This document shows, in pieces, positions 1 to 17,528 of a stretch of 18,330 bases of DNA. The translations under genes were made by a program, and so were the position numbers. The DNA is from a virus. A model generated the notes under the pieces. It was not told the origin of the DNA. It ran no database searches and was given only the letters and a program-made list of their open reading frames with translations. The stretch is from positions 1-18,330 of the IMG/VR virus record IMGVR_UViG_3300037445_000008, one strand, 5' to 3'. The stretch's first letter is position 1. The number at the start of each line of letters is the position of its first letter.

Positions 1-127
1 ATTTCGTCCTCGGTCATTTGGCACCATTGCCCTCACCACAATAGCAAACGGCACCAAATGACACAACAGGTATGCGGTAAACTGTCCCTTGCATGTGGCT
101 AGCATCACCGTCCTTTCCCAAACGCCA
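1..127. repeat. Left copy of an exact 127-bp terminal duplication (identical to 18204..18330)
   Basis: 1-127 (atttcgtcctcggtcatttggcacc...tttcccaaacgcca) matches 18204-18330 base for base. The boundary falls inside the HNH ORF (codon 6), so it looks like an arbitrary breakpoint of a circular or permuted molecule. Confidence 0.95.
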
Positions 128-172
128 AGTAACACGCGAAATAGATCAACAGCAGGAAGAGCAGCGTATCCA

Positions 173-454
173 TCATGCGACACCCAATTCCGAGATATCG
201 TTGGTCTGGCGAATACAGAACTGCACATAGCTCAGCATGTAATCACGCGCCTGCTGGCCGCTCTCCGCTTCCGTGAGCAACAGCATCCTGTGATCACGGA
301 TGTAGCACTGGACGAAATGATTATGGTTGGTGATGCGCCGCCAGCCGCCAAGCCCGTATTGCTCTAGCTGCGGTGCGAACAGGTCGGTGGCCGGCTTGCC
401 GTCCTCATCCAGGGCGCGGATTTCGTCGTCTTCAAAGTTCCATCGATACTTCAT
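173..454 (-). CDS. Hypothetical protein, 93 aa, last gene of the array
   Basis: The ATG at 454 forms an ATGA overlap with the stop of the upstream ORF. Third codon positions are GC-rich like the backbone and composition is balanced. No TM segment and no motif I recognise. Confidence 0.6.
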   Translation of the reverse strand: MKYRWNFEDDEIRALDEDGKPATDLFAPQLEQYGLGGWRRITNHNHFVQCYIRDHRMLLLTEAESGQQARDYMLSYVQFCIRQTNDISELGVA

Positions 455-651
455 CGGATCGCGATCCCCGTACCAATGCCAGCCAACTGCAACAGCACCA
501 GGATCACCACCAGGCAGGCGATCACCATGGCGACGACGCGGATGATCTGGCCAAGCGGTTCCGGTATCGGCAATGCCGTGGTGATGTAGTAGATCAGCGC
601 CACGACAACACCGATCACGATCAGATAGATCAATAAGGATATCAGGCTCAT
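451..651 (-). CDS. Putative holin (two predicted TM helices), 66 aa
   Basis: Two long hydrophobic stretches (LISLLIYLIVIGVVVALIYYI and IIRVVAMVIACLVVILVLLQLAGI) are separated by a PIPEP turn. It lies in the lysis cassette downstream of the endolysin, with ATGA coupling at both ends. Confidence 0.55.
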   Translation of the reverse strand: MSLISLLIYLIVIGVVVALIYYITTALPIPEPLGQIIRVVAMVIACLVVILVLLQLAGIGTGIAIR

Positions 652-851
652 TGCGGATGCTCCCCTGGATAACAGCGCTCCATCAGGATATCGACCGTCT
701 TCGATCTGCGGTCTGCGTCCCGTTGCAGCCCGACAAACGTCAGCACCGAGAACAGGCCGGCGAGAACAATCGCAGCCAAACAGGCCGGATTGTTCTTGAA
801 TGCGTCTATGGCCGACGTTGCGACCTTACCTGCTTCCTCCGGCAGCGACAT
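648..851 (-). CDS. Lysis-cassette membrane protein with a single TM helix (holin/antiholin-like), 67 aa
   Basis: A central hydrophobic helix (ACLAAIVLAGLFSVLTFVGL) is followed by a charged tail (QRDADRRSK). The ATG at 851 lies 26 nt before the endolysin stop (TAA at 826-828). Confidence 0.5.
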   Translation of the reverse strand: MSLPEEAGKVATSAIDAFKNNPACLAAIVLAGLFSVLTFVGLQRDADRRSKTVDILMERCYPGEHPQ

Positions 852-1566
852 ATTCGGTTACCTCGCCGTTGATCGTCAGCGTTACCCTGGTGCCATTGGC
901 CACGCTCATGCCGATATCGATGGAAGACGCGACCGGCTCAGGCACAGGGATGGCCGGCCCCATCCAGTCGGCGCAATGCTCGCGCGATCCGTTGAACTCA
1001 TTGCCATCCACAGCACCGACAACAGCGCCAGTGATCGTCACCGCGTCCGAGTATTGCCACAGCGAATAGAAAGGCCACGTCGTCTTCGGCCATTCCGGCG
1101 AACTGACGCCATAGTGGGCAATCCACAGCGATGTTTTCTCTGCCAATGTTGGACTATAGCCATCGCCAAGCTGTTCGCGGATCAAGTGGCCGGAATAGAC
1201 CGTGATCTCAACGGTGATGCGCGACGGCAGAGACGGCAGATGGTCCAGATAGTTCACCGCCTCTTCCAACTCTTCCAGGCTGGCATCCGTCTCGTGGTCG
1301 ATCACCATGCGCTCGCCGTCTTCCGGCTGCACCACGCCATAGAACCAGTCCATCTGCGCTTCGATGTCGCCCGAATGCAGGAAATGATAGCTCGCCACCC
1401 GCAAGCCTGCCTCACGCGCCTCATAGGCACGTTGCGCATACATGCTGTCCTCATAGCCGACACCTTCCGTCGCCTTGAGAATGACGCCGATCACGCCTTG
1501 CGCCTTCATCTCATCGAAGGATCGGACGTCGTTGTGGTGGCTGAGGTCTACGATATCCAGCCTCAT
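826..1566 (-). CDS. Endolysin, glycoside hydrolase family 25 (muramidase), 246 aa
   Basis: GH25 hallmarks are in order: DLSHHNDV, ILKATEGVGYEDS, ASYHF, MVIDHETD (D-x-E). There is no signal or SAR segment. A ~55-aa C-terminal extension has unknown function. The start is ATGA-coupled. Confidence 0.85.
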   Translation of the reverse strand: MRLDIVDLSHHNDVRSFDEMKAQGVIGVILKATEGVGYEDSMYAQRAYEAREAGLRVASYHFLHSGDIEAQMDWFYGVVQPEDGERMVIDHETDASLEELEEAVNYLDHLPSLPSRITVEITVYSGHLIREQLGDGYSPTLAEKTSLWIAHYGVSSPEWPKTTWPFYSLWQYSDAVTITGAVVGAVDGNEFNGSREHCADWMGPAIPVPEPVASSIDIGMSVANGTRVTLTINGEVTEYVAAGGSR

Positions 1567-1772
1567 TTGCTCACACCCTCGACCATGCTTTCGGTGATGG
1601 TGACGCCGATCTGTTTGAACGCGCTCGCCAGCTTCAACAGCCGCGCCATCTGCTCAACGTCGCAATCGTCCAGCGTGCCGGCCAGCATTTCCAGGTCATC
1701 CATGATTTCGGACAGATGTGTTTCTATATCCCACATCTGCTCGTCCCATTTACGCCGCTCTATCGCGTTCAT
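1563..1772 (-). CDS. Hypothetical acidic protein, 69 aa
   Basis: ATGA overlaps at both ends (1563-1566 and 1769-1772). Helical, Asp/Glu-rich sequence with no recognisable motif. Confidence 0.55.
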   Translation of the reverse strand: MNAIERRKWDEQMWDIETHLSEIMDDLEMLAGTLDDCDVEQMARLLKLASAFKQIGVTITESMVEGVSK

Positions 1773-2152
1773 TCGATATCCCCCGTCGCCGTCAGCCTGT
1801 GGCGCTCACCGGTCGCGTCGTCCCAGGCAAATTGCAGTTCGAACTGATTGGCATTGGCCGCAGCACGCTTGGCCTTGACGCTCACAGGACCATACAGGCG
1901 ATCCGATATCATCAAGGCTAGCCGCGCCTGGTCCGCTATCGGCATATCCACCTTGCTGCCTGGTCTGCCTGCCTTGTAGAGCAGCGCCGCGGCCACCACG
2001 AGCGGCTCATTCTTGAGGATCGATGTCACCATGTAGTGCAACTGGCCATCGGACAGGCGCTCATCCACGATTTCCCAATCCTCACGCGTCGAGGCAATCC
2101 GCTCTATGCGGGAAATGAAGCGGCGGCTTGCGGAGTCCAGAAAACGTGACAA
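1769..2152 (-). CDS. Hypothetical protein, 127 aa (TTG start)
   Basis: The start of this frame is TTG at 2152 with AAGGA 7 nt upstream. The nearby ATG at 2156 is out of frame and closes after ~24 codons. No motif recognised. Confidence 0.55.
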   Translation of the reverse strand: MSRFLDSASRRFISRIERIASTREDWEIVDERLSDGQLHYMVTSILKNEPLVVAAALLYKAGRPGSKVDMPIADQARLALMISDRLYGPVSVKAKRAAANANQFELQFAWDDATGERHRLTATGDIE

Positions 2153-2182
2153 GCATTTATCCTTTGTGTTCAGTGCCTTACA

Positions 2183-2893
2183 CTAAATCAGCATCTTGAA
2201 GATGTTGCCGATAGAGCCAAGCACCATGTGCTTCAACGGGTTTTGGCCGGCCATCATGTCCTTCATGAACTGGTCGCCCGTCCAGCCTTGCTGCATCGTT
2301 GACATGGCGTCCTGCATTGGCTTGAATTTCTGGCCGAGGATGTCCATTGGCGCAAAGCCATCCCCTGGCTGTGTCTGTGCCAGCGGTGGCAGCATGGAAT
2401 TAGGTGGCGACAGCAGGGACGGAGCACCGCTGCTGCCGCCGGGGGCCGGTTGCATCAGCGCCTGTTGACCGGACTGAGGCACCGGATTGGTGACATTGTT
2501 GCCAGCGTATTCGAAATGCATCGGGTCGGGTCGGCCCTTCCAGTTGCCGCCCCACTCCAGACCATGGCGCTGTGCCAGCTCTGCAACGTTGCTGGGAAGG
2601 TCCGTCGAGCCGCCGAGCGGGTTGGTGGCAGCATTGATGTCAATCGCCGTGCCAAAGGCGTGTTGCGACAGCTTGTCGGAACCACGAATGTTGCGGTAAT
2701 TGAAGCCGCCAGAGGATTGTACGGGATAGCCAGTCGCTGCCAGGTCTTTGAGGAAGCCGACGAACGCGCCAGCCGCCGGCCCATAGACGCTAAAACGCTG
2801 GCCGGGGACTGGCTCAATCTCCGTCAGGTTTTTTTTCCGCCATTCCGGGTCGGATGGATCGCCCAAACGCCCGATTGTTCCCCAATTGGCCAT
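2183..2893 (-). CDS. Peptidase M15 (VanY/Hedgehog-type Zn D,D- or L,D-peptidase) with a low-complexity C-terminal extension, 236 aa
   Basis: SQHAFGTAIDIN (His-x6-Asp) and GRPDPMHFEY (second His) form the M15 zinc signature. The C-terminal ~100 aa are Pro/Gln/Met-rich and end in a hydrophobic/amphipathic tail (HMVLGSIGNIFKMLI). Confidence 0.8.
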   Translation of the reverse strand: MANWGTIGRLGDPSDPEWRKKNLTEIEPVPGQRFSVYGPAAGAFVGFLKDLAATGYPVQSSGGFNYRNIRGSDKLSQHAFGTAIDINAATNPLGGSTDLPSNVAELAQRHGLEWGGNWKGRPDPMHFEYAGNNVTNPVPQSGQQALMQPAPGGSSGAPSLLSPPNSMLPPLAQTQPGDGFAPMDILGQKFKPMQDAMSTMQQGWTGDQFMKDMMAGQNPLKHMVLGSIGNIFKMLI

Positions 2894-2920
2894 AGATTAG
2901 TCGCCCTGTCGTCAGGTTAA

Positions 2921-2940
2921 CCCATTCTATAGCCTCTTGA
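2921..2940. repeat. Downstream copy of an imperfect direct repeat (cccattcta-N3-cctcttga) flanking the winged-helix gene
   Basis: On the minus strand it reads TCAAGAGG-cta-TAGAATGGG and heads a 2-codon remnant, ATG GGT TAA. The partner at 3425-3446 reads TCAAGAGG-ggaat-TAGAATGGG and is the real RBS plus start of the 155-aa ORF. Confidence 0.75.
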
Positions 2941-2961
2941 TTCCGCTGAATAGTCTGGCGG

Positions 2962-3429
2962 CTAGCCCTGTATCGCCAAAATCATCGCGATATGCTCCTC
3001 AGAGCGGCCTTGTCCACGTAAATCCTCGACTGTCCACCGTCTTTTTTTATAAAGATCCGTCTTAGATACGCAAACCGTTGCATGTACAGAATGGCTTTGG
3101 AGAGGTTTACGCGGCTTACGTGTAGTCACCTCATTATACCACGCCATTAGGTTGCGCCAGTTTCCTTGCAGCAAGAAATAGCTGCTGGCGCAGCGGTAAG
3201 CTTTCTTCCCAATTGTGCGATAATTATACTTCCACGCGATTAATCCAGCCTGTCGGAGTCTTTCAAGGCTTGATTGCAGCGTTCTGAGAGAACAGCCACA
3301 CCACTCCGCCAATGTAAGCTGGCTAATGGTAAGTTTACCCATGCGTAATAGTTTTATGCCGCGTTCCCTAAGGATAGCCATTACTTGGTAGTCGCGGGTT
3401 AATAACTTTACGGATTTGTAATGTCCCAT
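2962..3429 (-). CDS. Winged-helix/HTH DNA-binding protein (HTH_36-like, Rep/repressor-type), 155 aa, in a low-GC cassette
   Basis: ISQLTLAEWCGCSLRTLQSSLERLRQAGLI fits the S..tLAe..g.S.rTv.r.l..Le..Gli winged-helix pattern of phage/plasmid Rep- and repressor-like proteins. A second HTH-like stretch lies at the C-terminus (VEDLRGQGRSEEHIAMILAI). Strong SD (AGAGGGGA) sits 6-7 nt before the ATG. Hand counts on four 60-nt lines give 43-50% GC, against 65% for one neighbouring structural-gene line (4441-4500). A 155-codon ORF is unlikely by chance at that GC. Confidence 0.7.
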   Translation of the reverse strand: MGHYKSVKLLTRDYQVMAILRERGIKLLRMGKLTISQLTLAEWCGCSLRTLQSSLERLRQAGLIAWKYNYRTIGKKAYRCASSYFLLQGNWRNLMAWYNEVTTRKPRKPLQSHSVHATVCVSKTDLYKKRRWTVEDLRGQGRSEEHIAMILAIQG

Positions 3430-3446
3430 TCTAATTCCCCTCTTGA
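3425..3446. repeat. Upstream copy of the imperfect direct repeat (cccattcta-N5-cctcttga)
   Basis: Shares a 9-mer plus an 8-mer in the same order and orientation with 2921-2940. It contains the start codon and SD of the winged-helix gene. Confidence 0.75.
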
Positions 3447-3454
3447 CAGGGGAA
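3435..3454. promoter_or_regulatory. Perfect 7-bp inverted repeat (ttcccct-N6-aggggaa): SD-sequestering hairpin and/or operator
   Basis: In minus-strand RNA it reads uuccccu-gucaag-aggggaa, and the 3' arm is the SD of the winged-helix gene. On the plus strand the loop and arm spell TTGACA (3443-3448). Confidence 0.45.
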
Positions 3455-3472
3455 ACGCAAATCGATCATACA
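3443..3472 (+). promoter_or_regulatory. Candidate plus-strand sigma70-type promoter (TTGACA-N17/18-TCATAC/CATACA)
   Basis: Perfect -35 hexamer at 3443-3448 but only a weak -10 (3466-3472). A minus-strand TATGAT (3465-3470) overlaps it and could be the -10 of a divergent promoter for the winged-helix gene, though no good -35 accompanies it. Confidence 0.3.
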
Positions 3473-3477
3473 GTTAC

Positions 3478-3591
3478 TATGACCTTCGATGCGTACCCTC
3501 GTGTCTTTTGCTCTGGTCATCGCGCTTAGGGACTAGCCGGTCCGCTAAGCACTCATTAGGCCCGCCGTGGTGACATGGCGGGCCTTTTGTT
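3478..3591 (+). ncRNA. Candidate ~110-nt structured small RNA (orientation inferred from the terminator)
   Basis: The interval runs from the predicted TSS to a plus-strand terminator. It contains a 6-bp closing stem (3479-3484/3515-3520), a 10-bp bulged hairpin (3524-3533/3540-3550) and the terminator hairpin. There is no plus-strand ORF here except a 16-codon micro-ORF. Confidence 0.35.
3558..3591 (+). terminator. Rho-independent terminator, plus-strand orientation
   Basis: ggcccgccgtg-GTGA-catggcgggcc forms an 11-bp stem (one G.U) with a GNRA-type tetraloop, followed by TTTTGTT on the plus strand. On the minus strand the hairpin is followed by uaaugagugc, with no U-tract. It abuts the TAA stop (3590-3592) of the 574-aa gene. 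Confidence 0.6.
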
Positions 3592-5314
3592 ATCGTCCCA
3601 TTAATTGGTTAAGAATTCCCATCGTGCTGCCGCCAACCAGGCCAGCACCAGCCGTATTCAGTCCCAGGTTGGCAAGAGCGCCGGCTGTGCGCACACCTGT
3701 CATCGGTATTCCGTTTTCGTCGCGGTTCATCACGTCCAGCAGGTCGAAGGCACGCCGCGCCGGCCCGTTGTTGCGCGGCCCCAGGTGGCCAAATCCGCCG
3801 GATCGCGGATCGCGTTTCATCGCATTGATCAGCGTTCTGGGGTTCACGTCGCCGGCATTGCTAGTGGCACCCACTTTCTTGACCATGCCATAGACTTGCC
3901 ATTGCTCGCGCGCCTGCGCCCAACGCTGCGCAAATGTGCGGTCTCCCTGTTCCGCCGCTTTCTTCGAAATGAAATCGTCCAGCTTTTCCAGCGCCTGACG
4001 CATCAAATCGCCCTGCGAAACGGTTCCCGGCTTGTCGTAAAACCCAGCCATCAGGTCGGCCATCGTCGAGCGCGCCCGCATGATGGTTTCACCGCCGATT
4101 TCGCCGCCATGCGCCTCCAAATTGCGAATAGCGCCGTCTATCTCTTTCTGTGCCTGGCCCTTGTCGAAGACGTTGAATTTCTGCTGCAATGTCTTGAACA
4201 GGTCGGCATATTCCTGTGCCTGGCCGCGCGGCATCTGCTGTCCGGCATTTTCGAAGACCGTTTTCAGGTTTTCGCCGGCCTGGCCAATCGTGTGACTGTC
4301 CAACACCTTTGCATCTGGCACGGTCATCGCCTCGCCAACGGTCTTTGCCGCAAGCTCCTGGTTCGCCGCCTTGTCGGCGGCCACGTTCATCTGTCCCCAT
4401 GGCGTGGTGTCGTTGACGCCTGACAGCCAGCGCGGGATAGAGCCGCTGCGCGTGTCTGCGTGGCTGGGTGAGCGATAGCCTATATCCTCGACCCTCTGCC
4501 GCTGCGCCAGTCCGGCGTTGCTTGCTGCCTCACCGCTCGCGCCCGCCGCCTCCATTTCCGCATACGGATCTGGCGGCGCGTTCGGATTGCGCGCAGCACC
4601 CGCGCTGCCCGCGCCTTGATCAGCCGCCGCACCACCGCCACCAGGCACGGCATTGCCCTGGCTATCGACCGTGAAATCTGCGCCGCCAGCACCGCCTTCG
4701 GCCTGTGACGCCTCGAAGGCGGCGCGGTCAGCGGCATTCTGTATTCGCTGACCGCCCACCTCAACGCCGCGCGCTACGCTCGCCGCGTTCCTGGTCGCTA
4801 TCGTCTCTCCTACCTTCAAAGCCGCCGTCACCCCTTTTACCGCCGCTTCATTCAATCCGACGCCCGTCGCACCGAGCGCGCCGCCAATCAGCGCATTCTG
4901 CACGCGCTCTTCAATCGTCCCTGGCCTGACAAAGCCAGACAGCGCGCCACCCGCAGCACCGCCCGCCAGCATGGCCGGCACTGACATGCCCCCGGTAAAA
5001 GGCGTCAGCGCCAAGCCAGCGGCCACGTCGGGAAGCCCCTCGCCAATCGCCTCTGTCCAGGGTGCAGCGCGACTCGCCGCTTCCTTCTGTAGATTGAGAA
5101 CCTTGATCCGAGCTTGTATCTGTGGATCGTTCGGCTGCGCCAGTTGCTCAATGCCAAGGCCGATATCCTGCGCCCCACGGCCAAAGGCGCGCGCCAGATT
5201 GCCAGGGACAGAGCCTTGCGCCATCGCCGGATCGACGCCCACCCACTTGCCGGCCTCCGTGTCCCAGCCCCAGGCACCACCACCCTCATGCGGAACGATC
5301 TGGGTAATTGGCAT
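3590..5314 (-). CDS. Internal virion / DNA-ejection-type protein, Gly/Ala-rich, 574 aa
   Basis: The preferred start is ATG at 5314, preceded by GGAGG 5 nt upstream and just after the TAG stop (5317-5319) of the upstream gene. The N-terminal half has glycine-zipper-like hydrophobic stretches (GGMSVPAMLAGGAAGGALSG, LIGGALGATGVGL) and the C-terminus is Gly-rich. It is the last and largest of three low-complexity genes after the tail genes. Function is inferred from position and composition only. Confidence 0.5.
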   Translation of the reverse strand: MPITQIVPHEGGGAWGWDTEAGKWVGVDPAMAQGSVPGNLARAFGRGAQDIGLGIEQLAQPNDPQIQARIKVLNLQKEAASRAAPWTEAIGEGLPDVAAGLALTPFTGGMSVPAMLAGGAAGGALSGFVRPGTIEERVQNALIGGALGATGVGLNEAAVKGVTAALKVGETIATRNAASVARGVEVGGQRIQNAADRAAFEASQAEGGAGGADFTVDSQGNAVPGGGGAAADQGAGSAGAARNPNAPPDPYAEMEAAGASGEAASNAGLAQRQRVEDIGYRSPSHADTRSGSIPRWLSGVNDTTPWGQMNVAADKAANQELAAKTVGEAMTVPDAKVLDSHTIGQAGENLKTVFENAGQQMPRGQAQEYADLFKTLQQKFNVFDKGQAQKEIDGAIRNLEAHGGEIGGETIMRARSTMADLMAGFYDKPGTVSQGDLMRQALEKLDDFISKKAAEQGDRTFAQRWAQAREQWQVYGMVKKVGATSNAGDVNPRTLINAMKRDPRSGGFGHLGPRNNGPARRAFDLLDVMNRDENGIPMTGVRTAGALANLGLNTAGAGLVGGSTMGILNQLMGR

Positions 5315-5316
5315 GG

Positions 5317-6444
5317 CTACCTCCATGCTCGCGTGCGGGCTGGACGGCCACCAGGCGTGTCAAGCAGGCCGGTTCCGGGCTTCTGTGGCGTCGGCTGGCC
5401 ACGCTCCCAGCGCTCGCGCCGTGGTGCCGGCTGATTGTCGTTCTCGCCATAGCCTGGAGGAGCATCTTTCGGCGGCGGTGATGTCGGGCGCAGGTTGCTG
5501 CCCTCAATGCTCGACGGCACCTGATCCAGCGGAATGCCCCACTTGCCCGACGCCGCCTGCGCCCTTGACGCATAAAGCTTCGCCTGAATTTGTAGCTGCG
5601 TCGCCTTGGTCTTCAACAGATCCGGCGTCCAATGCGTTTCGTTCGGAATGACGCTATCAATAAATTCCTGCAAGCCGGCGTCAAAGGTGCCCTTGCCCTT
5701 CATCACGTCCTCGACCACCGAGCCGCGCACCGCGTTCCAAACGCCCTGATCGAATGGCACCTTGCCGCTCGCCATATCCGCCAGCGTTGTCACCGCGTCG
5801 GCGCTGTTCTTTAATGGCGAAATCTCGTCAAATCCCTTGATCCACGTCGGACTGCCACGGATGATCTGCGTTTGCAGCATCCCGGTCTTCTGATCAACGC
5901 CGGTAAACATCGAGTCCTGCGGCGGCTTGATCCCCATCTTATCCATCGCCGCCGTGGTGCCCAACGCTCCCGGCAGCGACAGCAGATATTGATAGCCTTT
6001 CTGCGTATCCTCCATGTCGCGATTGCGCTTAATCTGATCCATCCGCAACTGATCGTCATAGGTAATTTTCATGCGCTCGCGCGTTAACTGATCGTCAAAG
6101 ATCGTCGCCTGCTTTTGTATGCCAGCGGCTTTATCCTGGCTTTGCGACTGATACATCGCCCCGATCTGCTGCGAGAGCAGATTGTTGCCCATCTGCGAAA
6201 AATCCGGCTGCATCTTCGCCCACAGCGCCATTTGCGCCTTGCTCTGCGCATCGGGATTGGTTGCCAGGTATTCCGGCGACGTCAGCAGGCCGGTCGCCGC
6301 CTGACCAACACGCTGGCGTTCCGCCGCCTGCATGTTGATGGCATCGCGCTGTCCCAGCCAGTTGCTGGCATAGCTGCGGCCACCCAACAACATACCGAGG
6401 ATGTTGAAATTCGACTGGCCTTGTGCCGGATCAAGAATGCCCAT
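5317..6444 (-). CDS. Internal virion-type protein, 375 aa
   Basis: ATG at 6444. Gln/Met-rich helical N-terminal half and a Pro/Arg/Gly-rich C-terminal tail. It sits between two other low-complexity genes. No enzymatic motif recognised. Confidence 0.45.
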   Translation of the reverse strand: MGILDPAQGQSNFNILGMLLGGRSYASNWLGQRDAINMQAAERQRVGQAATGLLTSPEYLATNPDAQSKAQMALWAKMQPDFSQMGNNLLSQQIGAMYQSQSQDKAAGIQKQATIFDDQLTRERMKITYDDQLRMDQIKRNRDMEDTQKGYQYLLSLPGALGTTAAMDKMGIKPPQDSMFTGVDQKTGMLQTQIIRGSPTWIKGFDEISPLKNSADAVTTLADMASGKVPFDQGVWNAVRGSVVEDVMKGKGTFDAGLQEFIDSVIPNETHWTPDLLKTKATQLQIQAKLYASRAQAASGKWGIPLDQVPSSIEGSNLRPTSPPPKDAPPGYGENDNQPAPRRERWERGQPTPQKPGTGLLDTPGGRPARTRAWR

Positions 6445-6453
6445 GCCATCACC

Positions 6454-7203
6454 CTAGAAGAACGAGAAGCCGAATTGGCTGCTCTTGCCGGTCGATTGCT
6501 GCGACTGTTCACCCATCGACTGCGCTTGGCTCAGACCATAGGACAGCGCCGTCGGACCACCGAGAATGCCGGCAAGGCTGGTCAGCGGTGCCCATTGCGC
6601 CTGGAACGGCGACATGCCGAGATTGTACAAACCTTGCGCCGCCTGCGGGATCATCCCCGCCGCCTGGGACGCCGCGTCCGTCAGGCCGGCTGCGGCCTGC
6701 GCGCCGGTATTCCACATGTTCGAATAGATGTCGGTGCCGGCCTTGGCGATGGCGTTCGCCGCATCGCCGCCGGCCAGCCCCTGCGCGATTGCCTGCCGGC
6801 TACCGCCAATATTGCCAGTCAGCCCAGCGCCGGACGTGATCCCAGGCATGATGTTGCGCAAAAAGTTCTGCTGGATATCGCCCGTCGCGCTCGCCAGTTG
6901 CTGCCGCGCCAGGTCGCTGTTCGGGTTGGCATACTGCGCCAGCGGCCCTTGCATATTGGCAATGCCCGACAACGCCGACAATCCGCCCTGGCTTGCCGCC
7001 GTGCCGGTGTTCGCCAGCCCCTGCGCCGTCGCCCCCACCTGGCCTTGCTGCTGGTTGGCGAGGTTCTGCGCCTGCCCGTAAAGGCCGGTCAGCGCCTGCG
7101 CCTGCGGTTGCCACACCTGCTGGCCATTGACCGACTGCGCCAGGCTCTGGTTGTAGCCGTAGCCGCTGGAACTCTGGTTTGACGATCCGCCCGACATGCC
7201 CAT
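6454..7203 (-). CDS. Gly/Gln/Ala-rich internal virion-type protein, 249 aa
   Basis: ATG at 7203 with GAGGTG 5 nt upstream. Composition is extremely Q/G/A/S/N-rich. The C-terminus is aromatic (SSQFGFSFF). Confidence 0.45.
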   Translation of the reverse strand: MGMSGGSSNQSSSGYGYNQSLAQSVNGQQVWQPQAQALTGLYGQAQNLANQQQGQVGATAQGLANTGTAASQGGLSALSGIANMQGPLAQYANPNSDLARQQLASATGDIQQNFLRNIMPGITSGAGLTGNIGGSRQAIAQGLAGGDAANAIAKAGTDIYSNMWNTGAQAAAGLTDAASQAAGMIPQAAQGLYNLGMSPFQAQWAPLTSLAGILGGPTALSYGLSQAQSMGEQSQQSTGKSSQFGFSFF

Positions 7204-7212
7204 GACATCACC

Positions 7213-7722
7213 TCAATTCAGATGCTTGATCAGCCCCAGCCGGATTGTCGGCTGGTCCTCGCAAATATAGCCGTCCTCATCCATCTCCATGCCCATGCGC
7301 TTGATCAGCCGCGACCAGCCGCGCCGGCCCACCACCCTGAGATACCCAGGCGCATTGGTGCCCATAATCCGCTTGTGATCCTGCATACTGGTGTAGAGAT
7401 AAAACGCCAGTTCAGACAGCAATTGCCCCGACAATTCACCGGTATAATACAGCACCGAAAACACCGGCCCGCCGGTTTCGGGATGGTGCATCAGTTCAAT
7501 GCCGAAATGCGTCTCGTTGTCGCCATGCTCGACGATGAACGGCACCACATGGCCGCTCCGAACGTCGGTGGCGAAATCCCAATAGGTCTTGTAATAGCCG
7601 TCGCCGCCGACGCAGAACGCCGCAAAGCATTCGCGCAGCGACAGGTGATCGGCGTCACTGGGTACGCCCAGGAACCGATAGAGCGGCCTATAGCTTGGTC
7701 CAGGTGCCACCGTGGAATTCAT
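7213..7722 (-). CDS. Hypothetical virion-module protein, 169 aa
   Basis: The preferred start is ATG at 7722 with AAGAGGG 5 nt upstream, giving a 35-nt overlap with the upstream gene. The longer form from 7848 would overlap 7688..7978 by 161 nt and adds an Arg/Trp-rich N-terminus. Confidence 0.5.
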   Translation of the reverse strand: MNSTVAPGPSYRPLYRFLGVPSDADHLSLRECFAAFCVGGDGYYKTYWDFATDVRSGHVVPFIVEHGDNETHFGIELMHHPETGGPVFSVLYYTGELSGQLLSELAFYLYTSMQDHKRIMGTNAPGYLRVVGRRGWSRLIKRMGMEMDEDGYICEDQPTIRLGLIKHLN

Positions 7723-7978
7723 ACGTACCCTCTTGCGCGCCAGCCACGCCCGCTTTGAAATAGCGGACCACACCAGAAACGGCCCTAACCGGCAGAACTG
7801 CCGTAATATCCAGCCGTAGTTGCGATTGTCTTCCCTCGTTGAGTGCATCGGCTATCCTCAGCAGTTCGGTATACATCCACGCCGATTTGGCGTTCGGATC
7901 TTCCGATTGCGGTGGTGGTGCCGGCTGGTAAATCGCGCCGTCACCGCCCGCTGTTGCGATTGCCTTCGGCAAGACCAT
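7688..7978 (-). CDS. Hypothetical small tail-module protein, 96 aa
   Basis: The ATG at 7978 shares one base with the TGA of the 509-aa gene (TGATG). Pro-rich N-terminus and a beta-like C-terminus (GTYEFHGGTWTKL). Confidence 0.5.
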   Translation of the reverse strand: MVLPKAIATAGGDGAIYQPAPPPQSEDPNAKSAWMYTELLRIADALNEGRQSQLRLDITAVLPVRAVSGVVRYFKAGVAGAQEGTYEFHGGTWTKL

Positions 7979-9507
7979 CAGAACCGCCCCCCCAGTCGAG
8001 CCTGTGGTGATAGCTGCGTCAGTGTGAATGGATTGGCCGTGGTCGTTGCCACGTTGATGGCCAACAATCTCCCTTCCGTGAAGAAATCCAGTGTCCTGTC
8101 CGTGCCGAGCGTAAAATCGGCCACCGCGTCGAATGTCAAAACATCGCTGTCCAAATCCTGCGACCCGAACGAGAAGCGCAGCACGTCGCCGGTAATGCCG
8201 TTGATCAACGGTCGGAGCCCCGACATCACCTTTCTGTTCGTCAGCTTGTCGAGGTCGATCCCTGAGCGCTGCACGAAGGCCGGCATGGTCGGCGCGCCAT
8301 TCTCCGACAACATCCCGGCTGACCCTGCGGCATAGACCGGCGTTGACGGCAGAACACCACTCGCGGTTTCATCCCACGTCGTCGTATCACTATCCCAAGT
8401 TGTAGTGTCAATATCCCAGGTCTGCGGCACCAGGTTCAACAAGCCCATATCGACCATCCAGACATCAGGCAGATCGATGATGGAGGCGTCCCCCGACGCT
8501 ATCTCTATGGTAATCGCTTCATTCGCAGCAGTGTTGGTGCCAACAGGATATGCCAAGACCACCTGTCCCAGCCGCATATTCCTATATACAAACGTATTGA
8601 TCAGCTTGTTGTAGTTCAGCGCCGTGGAAAAGTACTCGCCCATGACGCCATAGAGCATATCAGTATAGCTGTTGCCGTCATGCTTGATCATGCGGCGATT
8701 GGCCGTCAGCATATATACAAGGTTACCGTCCTCACAGCAACAGTCGGTCGCGAAAATGCCGATACTGGGGAAGACGTCGCGCGTCTGGAATATAAACTGC
8801 CCGCCGACATATTGCAGCGTGCCGGTGTACTCATTCTTCATCACAAAGAACTGGTCGCGGACTGATATACCATCCTGCAATGGCCCGCGCGTGGCGGAAA
8901 AGTCGGCGTCTCCAGCGTCATTGGTGGGTGACGGCACCCAGTCGGAGGGAACCTGACCAGGTGCCGCCGACGTGGACCACGACACCTGGCTTTCCAGTCG
9001 CCCAGTCGGTGTGTCCACATTCAACGCCATCAGAAAATTCTTGTGCGCCCGCATCACGCCGCAGGTCCAGCCGGTCGGCCAGTTCGGCAGCTTGGTCATC
9101 ACCGACGCCGGATTGCCATTCCACCAGTACGGCCCACGCTGCGGATGGTTGACGAACGGCACGCCATTCAGATCGCCCAGCGAATACGAAAACACCGCGC
9201 CGGTAATCGCTCCCCAGCCAGCCGGCGTGATGTTGTAGTGGGTGACGCCATCGGTGACGGCAATGCCAGCATCACCGCCATAGAGCCAGTATTGCGAGCC
9301 GTTCGGCAGGCGCACGAAGCGCAGGAACTGCACCGCAAACAGCCGGCCAGAATTGGCAAACGGCTGCGCCCCAGGCATCCTGATGGTCTTGCCGCTCTTG
9401 AAATAGACGTTGCGCCCGTTCGACCACTTGTCGGCGGCAATCAACGACGCCGGCAGATCCTTGACGATCCCATGCATCATGATTTCGCCGCTCGCCGGAT
9501 GCGTCAT
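7978..9507 (-). CDS. Tail structural protein (nozzle/tubular-type by position), 509 aa
   Basis: ATGA-coupled to the tail-fibre gene. Beta-rich, Trp/Gly/Thr-rich sequence with three tandem 7-aa T-T-W-D repeats. Functional assignment is by synteny only. Confidence 0.4.
   Translation of the reverse strand: MTHPASGEIMMHGIVKDLPASLIAADKWSNGRNVYFKSGKTIRMPGAQPFANSGRLFAVQFLRFVRLPNGSQYWLYGGDAGIAVTDGVTHYNITPAGWGAITGAVFSYSLGDLNGVPFVNHPQRGPYWWNGNPASVMTKLPNWPTGWTCGVMRAHKNFLMALNVDTPTGRLESQVSWSTSAAPGQVPSDWVPSPTNDAGDADFSATRGPLQDGISVRDQFFVMKNEYTGTLQYVGGQFIFQTRDVFPSIGIFATDCCCEDGNLVYMLTANRRMIKHDGNSYTDMLYGVMGEYFSTALNYNKLINTFVYRNMRLGQVVLAYPVGTNTAANEAITIEIASGDASIIDLPDVWMVDMGLLNLVPQTWDIDTTTWDSDTTTWDETASGVLPSTPVYAAGSAGMLSENGAPTMPAFVQRSGIDLDKLTNRKVMSGLRPLINGITGDVLRFSFGSQDLDSDVLTFDAVADFTLGTDRTLDFFTEGRLLAINVATTTANPFTLTQLSPQARLGGRF
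8368..8430 (-). repeat. Three imperfect 21-nt tandem repeats encoding (Q/T)TWD(I/S/E)(D/T)T x3
   Basis: 'atccca' recurs at 8371, 8392 and 8413 (period 21). The protein reads PQTWDIDTTTWDSDTTTWDET. Confidence 0.7.
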
Positions 9508-10484
9508 CGCGCCGCCTCCATTGCCGACAGCCGCCCTTCCAAGTCATCGATCCGGTCGAGCGCCCACGACAGCGCCGCCCACAGGTATGGCGTCCGCTTT
9601 GACTGGTCGATGCCCCACGGATTGTCGCCCTCTGCCGGCGTTGCCAGGTCCTCGCTGACCGCATAGGACGTCTGCGCCCCCCAGCCCACCGCATAGGAAC
9701 CATCGCTAATCCAGGTAAAATCTCTGACGGGATCAGCGCGGATAATGTCAATGGCCTTTTGCGGATCGTAAGGCCCAATGAAATCCTTCAGCCGCTCGTC
9801 GGATGACGTGTTGTAGGCGGTGCTGTTGGCATTGGCGACAGAAATGGATCCGCAAAGCACACCACCCTGATAAAACGCGACAACGCCGCCGTTGCTGCCT
9901 ATTTTGTTGGCGTTTATCATCGTTCCGGTGTGTTCGATGATCATTCCGTTCGCCGGATCGACAGCAAATCCCGCAACACCAATGAGGCCGCCGCCGCTGC
10001 CGGAATGACCGACGACGATTGTATTGGCGGCAGTCGTCGCGCTGTTGATGATGCTGCCAAATTTTGCCGTACCTGTCCCGGTCACATTGCCCGACGCATC
10101 GACGAACAGCACATCGGTGCCGCTGCCATCCGCCTTGCTGTTGAGCGCCAGCCGGTTACTCGGTGTCTTGCGTTCAATCCACGACATATCGGCGTCGGTA
10201 AACCGCAAACCCTGCGGCGATGTGCCGGAAAACGTCAGACTGCCGCTCATCGCGAAATTGCCAGTCTGCGTTATGTCACCTGTGACCGTCACAGTGCCGA
10301 GCTTTGCGCCGTTGGGCGACTCTATCGGCTTGGTGTGCTTGATCGTCGTGCCGCTGTCGTCAAACACCGCCTGCAACGCGCTCTTGACCAGGCGGATATG
10401 GTTGTCGCCTTCCGCCTTGATGTCGGTGCCGAGCGGCCACGCCGCGTTCAGGCCGGATATCGTGGTCGAGCTTTCGACTGCCAT
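9504..10484 (-). CDS. Tail fibre with C-terminal intramolecular-chaperone (peptidase S74) domain, 326 aa
   Basis: The start ATG at 10484 lies 5 nt after the upstream stop. The N-terminus (ISGLNAAWPLGTDIKAEGDNHIRLVKSALQAVF) is a common tail-fibre anchor motif. The middle is Gly/Thr/Ser-rich. The C-terminal 100 aa begin with SSDERLK (S-D-x-R-x-K autocleavage motif) and end in a coiled coil (RIDDLEGRLSAMEAAR). Confidence 0.8.
   Translation of the reverse strand: MAVESSTTISGLNAAWPLGTDIKAEGDNHIRLVKSALQAVFDDSGTTIKHTKPIESPNGAKLGTVTVTGDITQTGNFAMSGSLTFSGTSPQGLRFTDADMSWIERKTPSNRLALNSKADGSGTDVLFVDASGNVTGTGTAKFGSIINSATTAANTIVVGHSGSGGGLIGVAGFAVDPANGMIIEHTGTMINANKIGSNGGVVAFYQGGVLCGSISVANANSTAYNTSSDERLKDFIGPYDPQKAIDIIRADPVRDFTWISDGSYAVGWGAQTSYAVSEDLATPAEGDNPWGIDQSKRTPYLWAALSWALDRIDDLEGRLSAMEAAR
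9507..9806 (-). other. Peptidase S74 / intramolecular chaperone auto-processing domain of the tail fibre
   Basis: SSDERLKDF...WGAQ...LWAALSWALDRIDDLEGRL. Codons for SSDER map to 9792-9806. Confidence 0.7.
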
Positions 10485-10488
10485 CTGA

Positions 10489-11052
10489 TCACCCCGCGAC
10501 CACGGCCATATTCGCCGTGTGACCGGCCATCGCCTTGTTGGCGTTCGCCGTCTCAATGTAATTGTTCAGTTGCGCGTCATAGGTATTGAGCGCATCGAAA
10601 TCCTGGATGAACGTCGCCGCCTGTACCAACAGCGCCGCCAGGTAGATGTTGGGATATTTCGTCAGGATCACGTTGGTTTGCGTGTCCGTCAGTTCCGGCC
10701 AGCGCGAGCCGTAGAACAGCAGCACCGCCCCCGACGCCGACAGGTAGATGTTCTTGCCGGATATGGCGAACAGGTCGCCGCCGCCGTCATAGACCGCCTG
10801 CAAGGGTGCCGAGCGCTGCGCCACATTGTTCAGGCGTAGCGCCTTGACGCGCCCGAAATCGGTGGGAAGCGCCACCGCGTTCAGGTTGGAGACCGCGTCA
10901 AGGCTTGCCGTCATTGCCACCGCCGCTTCGTTATCGAAGACATCCAGACGGGTGGCCATGTCGGCAATCGCACTCGCCTGAAAATCGTCAAACACCAGAT
11001 CCTTGCGGTGGATGAACGACGCGGCGACGGTTTTCATCTGTGACCAGATCAT
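10489..11052 (-). CDS. Head-tail adaptor/connector-type protein (by position), 187 aa
   Basis: ATG at 11052. It lies between the head genes and the tail fibre and is similar in size to podovirus adaptor proteins. No motif verified. Confidence 0.35.
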   Translation of the reverse strand: MIWSQMKTVAASFIHRKDLVFDDFQASAIADMATRLDVFDNEAAVAMTASLDAVSNLNAVALPTDFGRVKALRLNNVAQRSAPLQAVYDGGGDLFAISGKNIYLSASGAVLLFYGSRWPELTDTQTNVILTKYPNIYLAALLVQAATFIQDFDALNTYDAQLNNYIETANANKAMAGHTANMAVVAG

Positions 11053-11132
11053 CCTACGGCTTCCCTGGCGGTATCGCGGTCAGATAGAGCGGCGGCGTTC
11101 CAGGCTTGCCATGCCACTGGATCAATCCGCCC

Positions 11133-11282
11133 TTACTTATCCTGTTTGGCGCTCTTCCGATCATCATAGGGAATATCCTTGTCTTCGGCTTGCTTGTAGA
11201 GATCATCTATCGCTTTAAGTTCAAGCTCCAACTGCTTGATTTGATCGGTGATTTGCTTTTTCATTTCTTCCTTGCTTGCCAT
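11133..11282 (-). CDS. Small coiled-coil protein, 49 aa, in a low-GC patch
   Basis: ATG at 11282 with GGGAG 9 nt upstream. MASKEEMKKQITDQIKQLELELKAIDDLYKQAEDK has heptad character. Hand-counted GC is 40-42% on two 60-nt lines. The antisense frame (11106..11384 +) is also open, so strand assignment rests on the RBS and operon context. Confidence 0.45.
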   Translation of the reverse strand: MASKEEMKKQITDQIKQLELELKAIDDLYKQAEDKDIPYDDRKSAKQDK

Positions 11283-11323
11283 GGCTTTGTACTCCCGTAT
11301 CAGCCATTCAGTGATGAAATATC

Positions 11324-11539
11324 TCATCCCGCACAATGCGACGGTGGAAACGGTGCCGCCTTGTTGGCAACACCGTTGTTGTAGGCCGCGAGCGCGGTCG
11401 GATCACCGCTCAGTTGCACCACCGCGCCGCGATAGCCTTCGGCATACGCCTTTGCGAGCTTGCTGAACGGCGAAATCGCCCTGTTGGCGGCGGTCGGGGA
11501 GACATATGCCAGGTAGTCGATGTGCAGTTTTCCGGCCAT
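11324..11539 (-). CDS. Hypothetical head-module protein, 71 aa
   Basis: The preferred start is ATG at 11539 (GGAG 6 nt upstream, 1 nt after the upstream TGA). The ORF track's longer form uses TTG at 11551. Confidence 0.5.
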   Translation of the reverse strand: MAGKLHIDYLAYVSPTAANRAISPFSKLAKAYAEGYRGAVVQLSGDPTALAAYNNGVANKAAPFPPSHCAG

Positions 11540-11540
11540 T

Positions 11541-11852
11541 TCAATCTCCAAACGTCAGTTTTCGATAGTCGCTGTCATGTGAGAAGCGCTCCCAGGCGCG
11601 GAAGCGCTCATCAGGATCGTTGCTGGCAAGACCTGGATGGCGCTTGATCAGCACGCCCCAGGTCGCCAGCGGGATGGAAGCGATCTGCCGCCCCCAGGCG
11701 AATTTGCGGGGGCCGCCACTCCCCCGCACCGCCGCATTTTCTTCCAGGATGGCGTCCTCGTTGTTGGAAGTGTGCAGCCGATACAGCCGGCCATCCTCTT
11801 GCCTGTAACGATAGGTCTCGACGCCATCCGTATAGTCGAGCGGGTGGGTCAT
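11541..11852 (-). CDS. Hypothetical head-module protein, 103 aa
   Basis: ATGA overlap with the capsid gene stop. No recognisable motif. Confidence 0.55.
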   Translation of the reverse strand: MTHPLDYTDGVETYRYRQEDGRLYRLHTSNNEDAILEENAAVRGSGGPRKFAWGRQIASIPLATWGVLIKRHPGLASNDPDERFRAWERFSHDSDYRKLTFGD

Positions 11853-12895
11853 GCCACCATCGCCGCCTGCTGATCGACGTCATAGATGACGCCGCAACTG
11901 TCCTCGTTCCTGAGGCGCAGCGTGCCATCCACCGCCATCGAGCGCTTGTCGGCCAGGCCGGTTTTGGCCAGCGGTATCGTCTCATAGCCGCTCAACAGGA
12001 CCACATCGATGTATTCGAAATCGAAGATGCCGACGTGGCTGGTGTTGGCTGCGGATGTCGGCTGCAAGCGGTTCGGGATCATTTCGAGTGTGCCGAAATC
12101 GGTGATGAACACATTCACCGCGCCTTGCAGCGTCACCCCTCCCCTGTCGTCCTGGCTGACGGGCGATGTCACAGTCGCCACCCGCGCCGTCGAGGTAAAG
12201 CCGTATTCCGAAATCTTGCGGATGTTCTCAGGCCGCGCCATCAGCACCAGCGTCCGCCGCCCGTCCGGCCCACCCGCCAGGTAGACGTTCTGCACCGTGT
12301 CGCGCAGCACCGTCTCAGTCATCGCTCGCTTGGTGCCGGCTACGACATCCCCGAATAGTTTTGTACCAGTCGAAAAACCTGGCGTGCTACCCGTCGCGCC
12401 ATGCGACGAATTCGCCGTTGTCTGCGCAAAGATCGATGCCATCTTGCCCGCGATTGTCGCACCATCATCGGCTATAGACCCCTGGTTACTGAGCATGATT
12501 GCCTCGCGATCACGGCGAAGCTCACGCTGTCTTTGCATAATCTGATACGCCAATGCATCGGACGATCCCATGGTATCGGACGACTGCGCTCGTTCCGACA
12601 CCTGCACCGTCTTTGTCGAGATCTGACAGTGGTTCCCCTTGCGCGAGCCAGTATTTGTATCATTGGTCGTATTGGTATCCGCACCGTCAACGCGGGCATT
12701 GGCAAGATCCGGCGCGCGTAAAGCATCCTTATTCCACTCCGTATAGCTATTCGAGCAACTGCCGGATGCGGCGCGGTCGGTGAACGGAAGCGGAATATTC
12801 GTGACATCCCAAATCGCATCCATCACGTCTTCATGTATCCACCCGCCAGCCGCCACGGCCTTCAGGTCGGCACTGTCTAGATTGGTCGTTGCCAT
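11849..12895 (-). CDS. Major capsid protein (HK97-fold, SU10/DUF5309-like pattern), 348 aa
   Basis: Follows the scaffold gene. Pattern: YTEWNKDAL...NARVDGAD...GNHCQISTKTVQVSERAQ...GSSDALAYQIMQRQRELRRDREAIML, as I recall for this capsid family. The preferred start is ATG at 12895 (AGGTGG 5 nt upstream); the GTG at 12904 would overlap the scaffold stop. Confidence 0.8.
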   Translation of the reverse strand: MATTNLDSADLKAVAAGGWIHEDVMDAIWDVTNIPLPFTDRAASGSCSNSYTEWNKDALRAPDLANARVDGADTNTTNDTNTGSRKGNHCQISTKTVQVSERAQSSDTMGSSDALAYQIMQRQRELRRDREAIMLSNQGSIADDGATIAGKMASIFAQTTANSSHGATGSTPGFSTGTKLFGDVVAGTKRAMTETVLRDTVQNVYLAGGPDGRRTLVLMARPENIRKISEYGFTSTARVATVTSPVSQDDRGGVTLQGAVNVFITDFGTLEMIPNRLQPTSAANTSHVGIFDFEYIDVVLLSGYETIPLAKTGLADKRSMAVDGTLRLRNEDSCGVIYDVDQQAAMVA

Positions 12896-12896
12896 A

Positions 12897-13919
12897 TCAG
12901 CCACCTATCAATTTGGTCACAGCGCCGAGCTGGTCGCCCTTTTTGGCTAGCTCGCGCGCCTGTTGTTTGAGATCAGGCCGATACTGTCGCTTTGACGTGG
13001 CTGTTTCCGTCGGGCGCTTCTCGCGCTCGCTGCGCATTCGCTCCAAAATCTTCTCGCGCCGCATCATCTTGGTCATGAAATAGATTGTGCGGGCATCGTT
13101 CAGACTGTCGAGTTCCTGCTTGGAAAACCGCCATTTCTTGCCGAATTCGTAGAGTTCCGTGATTTCGGCGCGTTTGGTGCGTTCATCGGCCCATTCGGGA
13201 AACAATTCCCTCAACTCAGCCGCCGCCTTCACCTGGTTCTGCTTCCACGTTTCCTGTGCCACATGGAAGGCAGACGCAAACTGTTCCGGCGTCACCAGGT
13301 TCTTTACTTCCGCCAACAGGCCATCGATCTGCTGACGGGCGGAATAGACTTCATTGAGGCTGTCCGTTTTGTAGATTTCGAACTCATCGCGCTCATGCTG
13401 ATGCGCTTTGACCTTGCCCATGTCGTCGCGCAATTGCTGCACGGTCATCGGCTGTTCGTCGTCGTCCTCAAACGGCAGGTAGAGATTGTAAAGCTCCTTT
13501 GGATCGATCCCGCGTTCTTCCGCGAACTTGGCAATCGTCGTCCTCTGGCCTTTACGTGGACGCTGATACGGCTCTAATTCATCGTCCAAATCTTCCAGGT
13601 CGCTTCTGGACGCATCGGCTGGCGCATCCTTCCCTGACCTGGCCGGTCGATCCACGCCTTTGCCGCGAGCATGGTCGTCCTCATCGCGGGTCACCCCACG
13701 GAAATCCTTGCCTGACAGCAGGTCGGTGACCTGCGATAGCTGATCGCCGTCGCGGCGGGAGGCTTCCCGGCGCGACAGCCCGCCGCGCTCTTCGCGGCGT
13801 GAAAATTCTCGCTCATTCCGTTTCGGGATCGGCCTCGTGACGGTCTGCTGTTCGTCGGCTGCGTCCAGCGTCCGCTGCGCCGCCCTGGAAATTCCATTGT
13901 TCGAGCCGTCCAATGACAT
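12897..13919 (-). CDS. Scaffolding protein, 340 aa
   Basis: Lies between the portal and capsid genes. Highly charged (Arg/Glu/Asp/Lys-rich), predicted helical. GGAG 8 nt before the ATG at 13919. Confidence 0.6.
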   Translation of the reverse strand: MSLDGSNNGISRAAQRTLDAADEQQTVTRPIPKRNEREFSRREERGGLSRREASRRDGDQLSQVTDLLSGKDFRGVTRDEDDHARGKGVDRPARSGKDAPADASRSDLEDLDDELEPYQRPRKGQRTTIAKFAEERGIDPKELYNLYLPFEDDDEQPMTVQQLRDDMGKVKAHQHERDEFEIYKTDSLNEVYSARQQIDGLLAEVKNLVTPEQFASAFHVAQETWKQNQVKAAAELRELFPEWADERTKRAEITELYEFGKKWRFSKQELDSLNDARTIYFMTKMMRREKILERMRSEREKRPTETATSKRQYRPDLKQQARELAKKGDQLGAVTKLIGG

Positions 13920-13960
13920 ATCGAATGCTCCAGATTTCCCTCAACAAATCACTCACATCG

Positions 13961-17321: not shown

Positions 17322-17327
17322 TGCCCC

Positions 17328-17528
17328 TCATTTCTCAATCCCCATCAGCAGGCGCACATCCCGCGAAATTCTAGCCGCCACCTCTTGATAATAGACCGCA
17401 TCTTGCAGCCACTCATTCGGATCAAAGCCATCTTTTGCCGCTTGCTTTGCTTGCTCACGGCATCCCATCGCCATCATGTATCTTTGTGCCGCCTGCGTCT
17501 GCACCACCACTTTCGGATCATCACTCAT
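17328..17528 (-). CDS. Hypothetical protein, 66 aa (possible small-terminase component by position)
   Basis: ATGA-coupled to the upstream HTH gene and ends 6 nt before terL. Helical, with no motif recognised. Confidence 0.5.
   Translation of the reverse strand: MSDDPKVVVQTQAAQRYMMAMGCREQAKQAAKDGFDPNEWLQDAVYYQEVAARISRDVRLLMGIEK

Follow-up and report, generated by a model that had tools for sequence, protein, structure and literature searches.

Two candidate RNA elements on opposite strands of a conserved intergenic gap between the virion and lysis genes of an uncultured soil podophage

IMG/VR virus record IMGVR_UViG_3300037445_000008 (positions 1–18,330; hereafter the window) holds a late-gene block of ~18 kb from a tailed phage, an uncultured podophage, in which all protein genes occupy the minus strand and only one real non-coding gap is present (3430–3589). 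This gap separates the last gene of the virion block, encoding a 578-amino acid (aa) ejection-like protein, from the gene for a 155-aa winged-helix protein, and raises the question of what it encodes and on which strand. An earlier reading of the window (the original prediction) had singled it out as the largest gap in the gene array, rich in hairpins and with a plus-strand T-tract, all of which the sequence confirms, and had proposed a plus-strand RNA of ~110 nucleotides (nt), with the alternative that the same structures serve the minus strand as the 3′ end of the virion operon and a structured leader of the winged-helix gene. Comparison with homologous gaps points to two RNA elements on opposite strands, with a candidate small RNA in the right-hand part (the right domain) and a hairpin in the leader of the winged-helix mRNA in the left-hand part (the left domain; Table 1). 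Taken whole, and including an antisense role for the small RNA, this two-element reading is given a probability of about 0.55; its promoter, transcript and regulatory effect we infer from the structure, conservation and arrangement of the sequences.

Table 1. Features of the gap and its surroundings, in coordinates of the window.
Feature	Position	Strand	Remarks
Candidate small RNA (P3 with P3a, H2, terminator H1)	3479–3592	plus	~115 nt; 5′ end putative, 3′ end set by terminator
Stem P3	3479–3484 with 3515–3520	plus	ATGACC paired with GGTCAT; 6 bp, encloses 30 nt
Hairpin P3a, inside P3	3488–3493 with 3500–3505	plus	pyrimidine-rich loop UACCCU
Hairpin H2	3524–3550	plus	two-tier stem, bulged G on 3′ side, GCC in loop
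Hairpin H1 and T-tract	3558–3585, T-tract to 3592	plus	12 pairs (9 G-C), GUGA loop; then TTTTGTT
Candidate small-RNA promoter	3443–3472	plus	−35 TTGACA 3443–3448, 18-nt spacer, −10 CATACA 3467–3472
Leader hairpin H4x of winged-helix mRNA	3425–3465	minus	inner stem 3435–3441 with 3448–3454
Terminase	16023–17321	minus	
Portal	13961–16036	minus	
SU10-type adaptor and further virion proteins		minus	after portal in gene order
Ejection-like proteins, three	6454–7203, 5317–6444, 3590–5326	minus	rich in Gly/Ala/Gln
578-aa gene, ejection-like	3590–5326	minus	Gly/Ala-rich; last of virion block; stop codon (3590–3592) abuts H1 T-tract
Winged-helix (HTH_36) gene, 155 aa	2962–3429	minus	first after gap, directly upstream of lysis cassette
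Lysis cassette: M15 peptidase	2183–2893	minus	
Lysis cassette: GH25 muramidase	826–1566	minus	
Lysis cassette: small membrane proteins		minus	

Conservation, structure and strand preference of the right domain

The comparison set consisted of six distinct sequences drawn from 10 contigs (the window and the relatives L001, L002, L031, L037 and L038), with all usable relatives recovered from soil metagenomes by two protein searches followed by look-ups of contigs carrying exactly the same proteins. The layout was kept in all five relatives, each having a large ejection-like protein, a gap of 156–176 nt, the winged-helix gene and then lysis genes with a muralytic enzyme, and the flanking proteins were 41–74% identical to those of the window. 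Pairwise identity within the gap (60–87%) equalled that of the neighbouring coding DNA and lay far above identity at third codon positions (0.26–0.71), and the gap is therefore under selection. The L031 version occurred identically in four more assemblies. Independent assemblies (one JGI metagenome, one ENA metagenome, several Logan runs) yielded L031–L036, in which the gap and the winged-helix gene were base-for-base identical, and this type of phage therefore recurs across samples.

Beyond these contigs, DNA and protein searches of the INPHARED phages returned nothing related, the portal gene found matches only at ~25% identity (EBPR podovirus 2, Sulfitobacter phages and LUZ24-like phages), and the matches of three proteins and three DNA patterns in IMG/VR were all due to chance or to unrelated coding sequence. 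Two scans of GTDB genomes found nothing related, and one scan of JGI metagenomes recovered a contig end without the gap and nothing else. Judged by these searches, the lineage has no close relatives among annotated phages or in IMG/VR or the GTDB genomes.

The gap as a whole folds better than all of 200 shuffled versions on either strand (z = −4.47, plus; z = −4.41, minus), and the plus strand of 3476–3592 reaches a minimum free energy (MFE) of −54.7 kcal/mol (z = −5.13). A three-domain fold is common to all six sequences on the plus strand, and their comparison establishes the structure, conservation and strand preference of the small-RNA element. The right domain had a lower MFE on the plus than on the minus strand in 6/6 sequences, by 5.7–18.5 kcal/mol (z between −3.8 and −5.1, plus, and between −1.0 and −5.0, minus), with the MFE folds containing 227 pairs of which 25 were G-U on the plus strand, compared to 209 pairs and 7 G-U on the minus strand. 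For stems P3 and H1 taken together, pairing amounted to 97.1% with a covariation score of 0.475 on the plus strand, compared to 86.3% and 0.267 on the minus strand. Five of these pairs had changed on both sides (11 cells), none of 500 shuffles reached the observed score, and controls in which the stems were slid along the alignment were 24–54% paired. In the two stems, ten cells that are G-U on the plus strand turn into A-C mismatches on the other, and the reverse was seen once.

The individual helices followed the same pattern. P3 was paired in 36/36 cells on the plus strand, with two pairs changed on both sides, and carried an A-C mismatch on the minus strand in five of the six sequences. 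P3a formed in every plus-strand fold, using G-U pairs, and in none on the minus strand. The architecture of H2 was the same in 6/6, with 8 of ~12 pair positions changed on both sides and all cells paired on the plus strand, including five G-U cells that are specific to this strand and would be A-C mismatches on the other. Overall, the helices of the right domain are kept by compensatory change beyond what shuffled and slid controls produce, as would be the case for a structured non-coding RNA, and wobble pairs and stability fit the plus strand alone.

Of all terminator-like hairpins in the 18 kb, H1 is the strongest, and the minus strand has no comparable site. H1 has the GC-rich stem-loop and U-rich tail of a plus-strand intrinsic terminator. 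Its folding energy on the plus strand was −21.6 to −27.6 kcal/mol across the six sequences (RNAfold), the plus strand being the better of the two in five. H1 was 95.5% paired, with three pairs changed on both sides, and five plus-strand G-U cells at four positions become A-C on the minus strand (the reverse occurring once). The GUGA loop (GGTGAC) and the CUUUU tail (CTTTT) were invariant in 6/6. The former is a GNRA tetraloop only when read as plus-strand RNA, the other strand reading UCAC, and the latter is held in place although the upstream gene's stop codon lies anywhere from 0 to 17 nt away. A terminator scanner called H1 in the window, L001 and L038, and called no minus-strand terminator at the gap. 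The minus-strand tail examined for a bidirectional terminator reads UAAUGAGUGCUU, and H1 is not bidirectional because UAAUGAGU, which has no U-tract, follows the hairpin on the minus strand. The GC-rich GUGA hairpin with its T-tract on the plus strand only, as described in the original prediction, is thereby confirmed.

A covariance model of the small RNA (model R1) found one copy in the window, one in each relative and nothing else in 0.7 Mb of loci; a second copy was looked for in the window and the same 0.7 Mb, and the idea was dropped. The Rfam scan suggested alongside the original prediction (release 15, whole window) returned no family at gathering thresholds, and no tRNA or tmRNA was found in the window. 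The best lenient Rfam match was RF02278, a Betaproteobacteria toxic small RNA, at a sub-threshold 20.2 bits (gathering threshold, 50). What the two share is a 5′ segment rich in pyrimidines and, after it on the plus strand, a GC-rich terminator hairpin ending in a U-tail, but the match derives from the terminator alone, with the middle 45 nt unaligned, and the candidate is not a member of this family. A ~115-nt plus-strand RNA ending at H1 is the best reading of the right domain and makes a credible candidate for a new small RNA without an Rfam match.

Coding potential was also considered for the gap. Comparison of frame and length among the homologues revealed no open reading frame (ORF) conserved on either strand: a 50-aa plus-strand ORF (3421–3573) is present in the window alone, and peptides beginning at a minus-strand ATG within an invariant TATG differ in length and frame and show no bias of change toward third positions. 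A small or upstream ORF was dropped as a candidate, none being conserved.

Candidate promoter and leader hairpin

A plausible candidate promoter for the small RNA precedes the right domain. The strings CTTG and CATA are invariant in 6/6 and, read as −35 and −10 hexamers, are 17–18 nt apart, and the first base of P3, a purine, follows the CATA hexamer by 6–7 nt. This geometry fits a start at ~3479 together with the switch in the preferred folding strand near 3470. The hexamer TTGACA itself occurs 9 times in the window (7.45 expected) and therefore has no weight on its own. A sigma-54 promoter was considered and rejected, as its GG..GC spacing was inconsistent, by eye, with GGTC...TATG, and the GGTC is explained by pairing within P3.

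The left domain has the opposite strand preference, being more stable on the minus strand in 6/6 sequences (−15.4 to −20.8 kcal/mol), and contains the ribosome-binding site (RBS) and AUG of the winged-helix gene (3427–3441). In the predicted hairpin H4x, the inner stem pairs the RBS, AGGGGAA, with UUCCCCU, and in most relatives an outer stem pairs a 9-nt box, CGAUUUGCG (3456–3464), with the start-codon region, CGCAAAUG. G-U pairs on the minus strand number three each in L001 and L031, and in L001 and L038 the loop is a GNRA tetraloop (GCAA) on the same strand. As folded from these sequences, H4x buries both the RBS and the AUG of the winged-helix gene, and TTGACA lies in its loop. The ~110-nt RNA of the original prediction accordingly stands in strand and extent, as judged by compensatory changes, plus-only G-U pairs, greater stability in 6/6 and the invariant GUGA and CUUUU, but the hairpin part around TTGACA falls away and is assigned to minus-strand leader structure.

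Read on the plus strand, the box is CGCAAATCG and nearly invariant, with an exact match in 5/6 phages and CACAAATCG in L031, while its start-codon partner varies; the box is therefore constrained beyond pairing and could be a protein-binding site. As a recurring phage promoter or operator motif it was rejected, since TATGNNCGATTTGCG has no recurrence in the window. Also rejected was a minus-strand promoter with TATGAT as its −10, for which there was no conserved −35 and whose transcript, starting 7 nt downstream, would lack the box that forms pairs with the start-codon region.

A further likeness joins the two domains. Midway along the gap, the minus strand carries a purine-rich motif (3494–3500 in the window) that is similar in every phage to that phage's winged-helix RBS (3437–3448 in the window), and L038 has two copies of the 9-nt string GCAAGAGGG (~506–514 and ~583–591). 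Duplex energies did not consistently favour pairing. Pairing in trans between the pyrimidine-rich loop of P3a and the winged-helix RBS was rejected (P3a region with the translation start region of the winged-helix gene; mean of −14.9 kcal/mol for cognate and −14.2 kcal/mol for non-cognate combinations, with 2/6 beating shuffles).

Alternative readings and proposed function

Several observations weigh against the two-element reading. There are only six sequences, two of which, L002 and L037, are close (87% identical), and the covariation statistics are correspondingly thin; the check by conservation and covariation in homologous gaps proposed with the original prediction thus came out in favor of hairpins kept by compensatory changes, on a thin sample. 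In the right domain G+T is more abundant on the plus strand (0.52–0.58), a composition that by itself aids folding, and the support for the small RNA comes from conservation and structure, not from transcripts. The strict scanner called H1 in only 3/6 sequences, missing L002, L031 and L037 for a stem mismatch or bulge, and the U-tail has four consecutive U only. At the promoter, the perfect TTGACA of the original prediction is present in the window but fails as an invariant −35, which reads TTGCGG in 2/6 and TTGACG in 1/6 with only TTG invariant, the −10 (CATAnn) lacks a T at −7, and none of the six gaps yielded a sigma-70-type promoter when scanned. The host may follow other promoter rules. 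No target was found in the window beyond the perfect complement in cis: complements to the small RNA of at least 12 nt were absent elsewhere in the window, with only chance-level matches of 10–11 nt.

If the minus strand alone matters, the gap would consist of the virion operon's 3′ untranslated end and, joined to it, a structured 5′ leader for the winged-helix gene, with H1 stabilising or weakly terminating late mRNA and the other hairpins serving processing or translational control, for example by a switch between alternative pairings, so that the hairpin over the RBS opens or closes. The orientation of every protein gene, the clear minus-strand structure over the RBS and AUG, the purine-rich motif that resembles the RBS (with the 9-nt identity in L038), a hairpin joining GGUCAUA to UAUGAUC that is better on the minus strand in 4/6 and the lack of a called plus-strand promoter all agree with this. 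On that strand, however, most sequences have A-C mismatches in P3, P3a, H2 and H1, P3a fails to form at all, the right domain is weaker in 6/6 by the margin given above, UAAUGAGU stands after H1 instead of a U-tract, the conserved tetraloop becomes UCAC, which is not a special loop, and the conserved run beside H1 becomes an A-tract, useless to a terminator working in the minus direction only. A minus-strand reading explains the left half of the gap well and the right half poorly; the alternative within the original prediction holds for the left 40 nt only and, extended to the whole gap, is unlikely. H1 might instead act as an insulating terminator for longer plus-strand transcripts begun elsewhere, either spurious or early antisense transcripts from the AT-richer winged-helix and lysis region or from beyond the end of the contig, in which case P3 and H2 would be 3′-end stability elements and not parts of a stand-alone small RNA. 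The plus-strand terminator is conserved and the promoter within the gap is weak, the winged-helix gene lies in a dip in GC content (0.468) where chance promoters are likelier, and long antisense transcripts are known in virulent phages (PMC10914365). Such an insulator is nevertheless quite improbable, as at least 3.2 kb on the low-coordinate side hold only minus-strand genes in both the window and L031, the preferred folding strand switches at ~3470, which fits a local 5′ end, with a left domain unlike a plus-strand RNA, and TTG, CATA and the first base of P3 keep their distances from one another.

An element acting as DNA (a replication origin, a packaging site or an array of protein-binding sites, with hairpins extruded from supercoiled or single-stranded DNA, at which the winged-helix protein might bind CGCAAATCG) would account for invariance of the 9-nt box in excess of what pairing needs, has a DNA-binding protein encoded alongside and could accommodate the wobbles, since G-T pairs form in single-stranded DNA too. 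It is very unlikely because many two-sided changes in the stems have altered the sequence but kept the pairing. The combination of a GNRA tetraloop with a T-tract after it is moreover the signature of an RNA terminator, and the box does not recur in the window and has a simple RNA explanation as the 5′ arm of the hairpin over the start codon.

Under the two-element reading, the small RNA (~3479–3592) would start from a weak sigma-70-like promoter, TTG(ACA) and CATAnn separated by 17–18 nt, the DNA of which overlaps the leader hairpin (3425–3465) on the minus strand, and its termination at H1 would coincide exactly with the last virion gene's stop codon. Late transcripts of the virion genes would read through the gap into the winged-helix and lysis genes, because there is no minus-strand terminator there, and would be fully complementary to the small RNA over ~115 nt. 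Given this complementarity, the small RNA itself, or its convergent transcription, would most likely hold down the winged-helix and lysis genes or set the time of their expression, with duplex formation and cleavage or transcriptional interference as possible routes and the leader hairpin adding a second, translational brake. A doubtful extension of this scheme is a conserved two-part RNA timer at the virion/lysis boundary of a lytic podophage, in which a reverse-strand small RNA and a hairpin sequestering the RBS and AUG together set the timing of the winged-helix and lysis genes, with logic like that of plasmid countertranscripts reused for lysis.

Known antisense systems offer partial parallels. 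The sar RNA of phage P22 is a short (~69 nt) antisense RNA from the arc-ant region of immI that overlaps the RBS of ant. The candidate would share with it a short length, a promoter of its own (here predicted) within a phage operon, a strand opposite to the genes, a place beside a regulatory gene downstream of virion genes and an opposing transcript that is its perfect complement. The candidate, however, is longer, has three conserved hairpins and no sequence similarity to sar, neighbours a winged-helix gene and not an antirepressor gene, and would lie 25–50 nt upstream of the winged-helix RBS without overlap. The sar/ant analogy made in the original prediction is thus loose: with plus-strand structure beginning at 3479 and the RBS and AUG at 3427–3441, an RNA starting near 3479 would miss the RBS. 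Countertranscripts that control plasmid rep genes (CopA of R1, Inc RNA of IncB/IncI-alpha and RNAIII of pIP501) need not overlap an RBS, and the layout of the candidate appears closer to these than to sar, as a structured antisense RNA with an intrinsic terminator (60–150 nt in the plasmids) in the leader of a winged-helix gene with a sequestered RBS. The differences are a setting in a phage late region between virion and lysis genes, a winged-helix protein whose matches are only generic (HTH_36 and an ArsR/MarR/Rep-like fold) and do not mark it as a replication initiator, and a leader in which neither a leader peptide nor a consistent activator pseudoknot or loop-RBS pairing was found. OOP of lambda, a short opposite-strand RNA overlapping the 3′ end of the cII coding region, forms a duplex that leads to cleavage by RNase III. 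The candidate resembles OOP in its opposite strand, its end at an intrinsic terminator and its complementarity to the end of a neighbouring gene's transcript, but lies almost wholly in non-coding sequence, ending where it reaches the stop codon.

Antisense RNAs with defined start sites have been mapped in virulent Pseudomonas phages by ONT-cappable-seq, and these too are small RNAs of lytic phages that lie opposite dense genes with their own starts and terminators (PMC10914365). Those RNAs were identified from transcripts, mostly without analysis of conservation or structure, whereas the evidence for the candidate is conservation and structure, and the lineages are unrelated to the phage of the window (portal identity of ~25%). 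By analogy, the candidate would in kind be a phage small antisense RNA, as in the virulent Pseudomonas phages, sar and OOP.

Genomic setting and significance

The virion block upstream of the gap ends in three consecutive Gly/Ala/Gln-rich proteins of 249, 375 and 578 aa (3590–7203) with almost no database relatives. The 249-aa protein had a weak PHROG match to ‘DNA ejection protein’ and nothing more, and homologues of the 578-aa protein were found only in the related contigs (74% and 57% identity); the lineage is poorly sampled, and the three probably serve as ejection or internal virion proteins. On the other side of the gap, all six winged-helix homologues matched Pfam HTH_36, and the predicted fold resembled only generic ArsR/MarR/Rep-type winged helices; with searches returning the generic fold alone, assignment of a precise function was dropped. 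A dip in GC content (0.468 for 3001–3500, compared to 0.53–0.68 elsewhere) covers the winged-helix gene together with the left part of the gap (2962–3500), which suggests a different origin of, or special constraints on, this gene.

The lysis cassette of the window (826–2893) has two muralytic enzymes, the M15 peptidase and the GH25 muramidase. In L031 (1434–3411), a PF06737 transglycosylase occupies the slot of the M15 peptidase directly after the winged-helix gene and the GH25 gene is retained, a replacement that looks like a module swap. The other apparent gap in the window (17756–17875, 120 nt) contains a minus-strand ORF of ~47 aa (~17735–17878) that was unlisted as it falls below the ORF-listing cut-off, and the product of which has a hydrophobic core (MSFDWLFNDGGIIVVAIAAVPAWFLL...).

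If transcribed, the candidate would represent a new family of phage small RNAs without an entry in Rfam, marked by conservation, covariation and a clear strand signal, in an uncultured lineage of soil podophages without a relative in the phage, IMG/VR or GTDB collections. Comparing G-U with A-C cells in only a handful of homologues was sufficient to assign strands within one intergenic region, here to two opposed elements. To our knowledge, control at the RNA level of the switching on of lysis genes is little documented outside of a few model phages. The position of the candidate between the virion block and a regulator with its lysis cassette, beside a hairpin predicted to hide a start codon, suggests RNA-level timing of lysis in a lytic phage.

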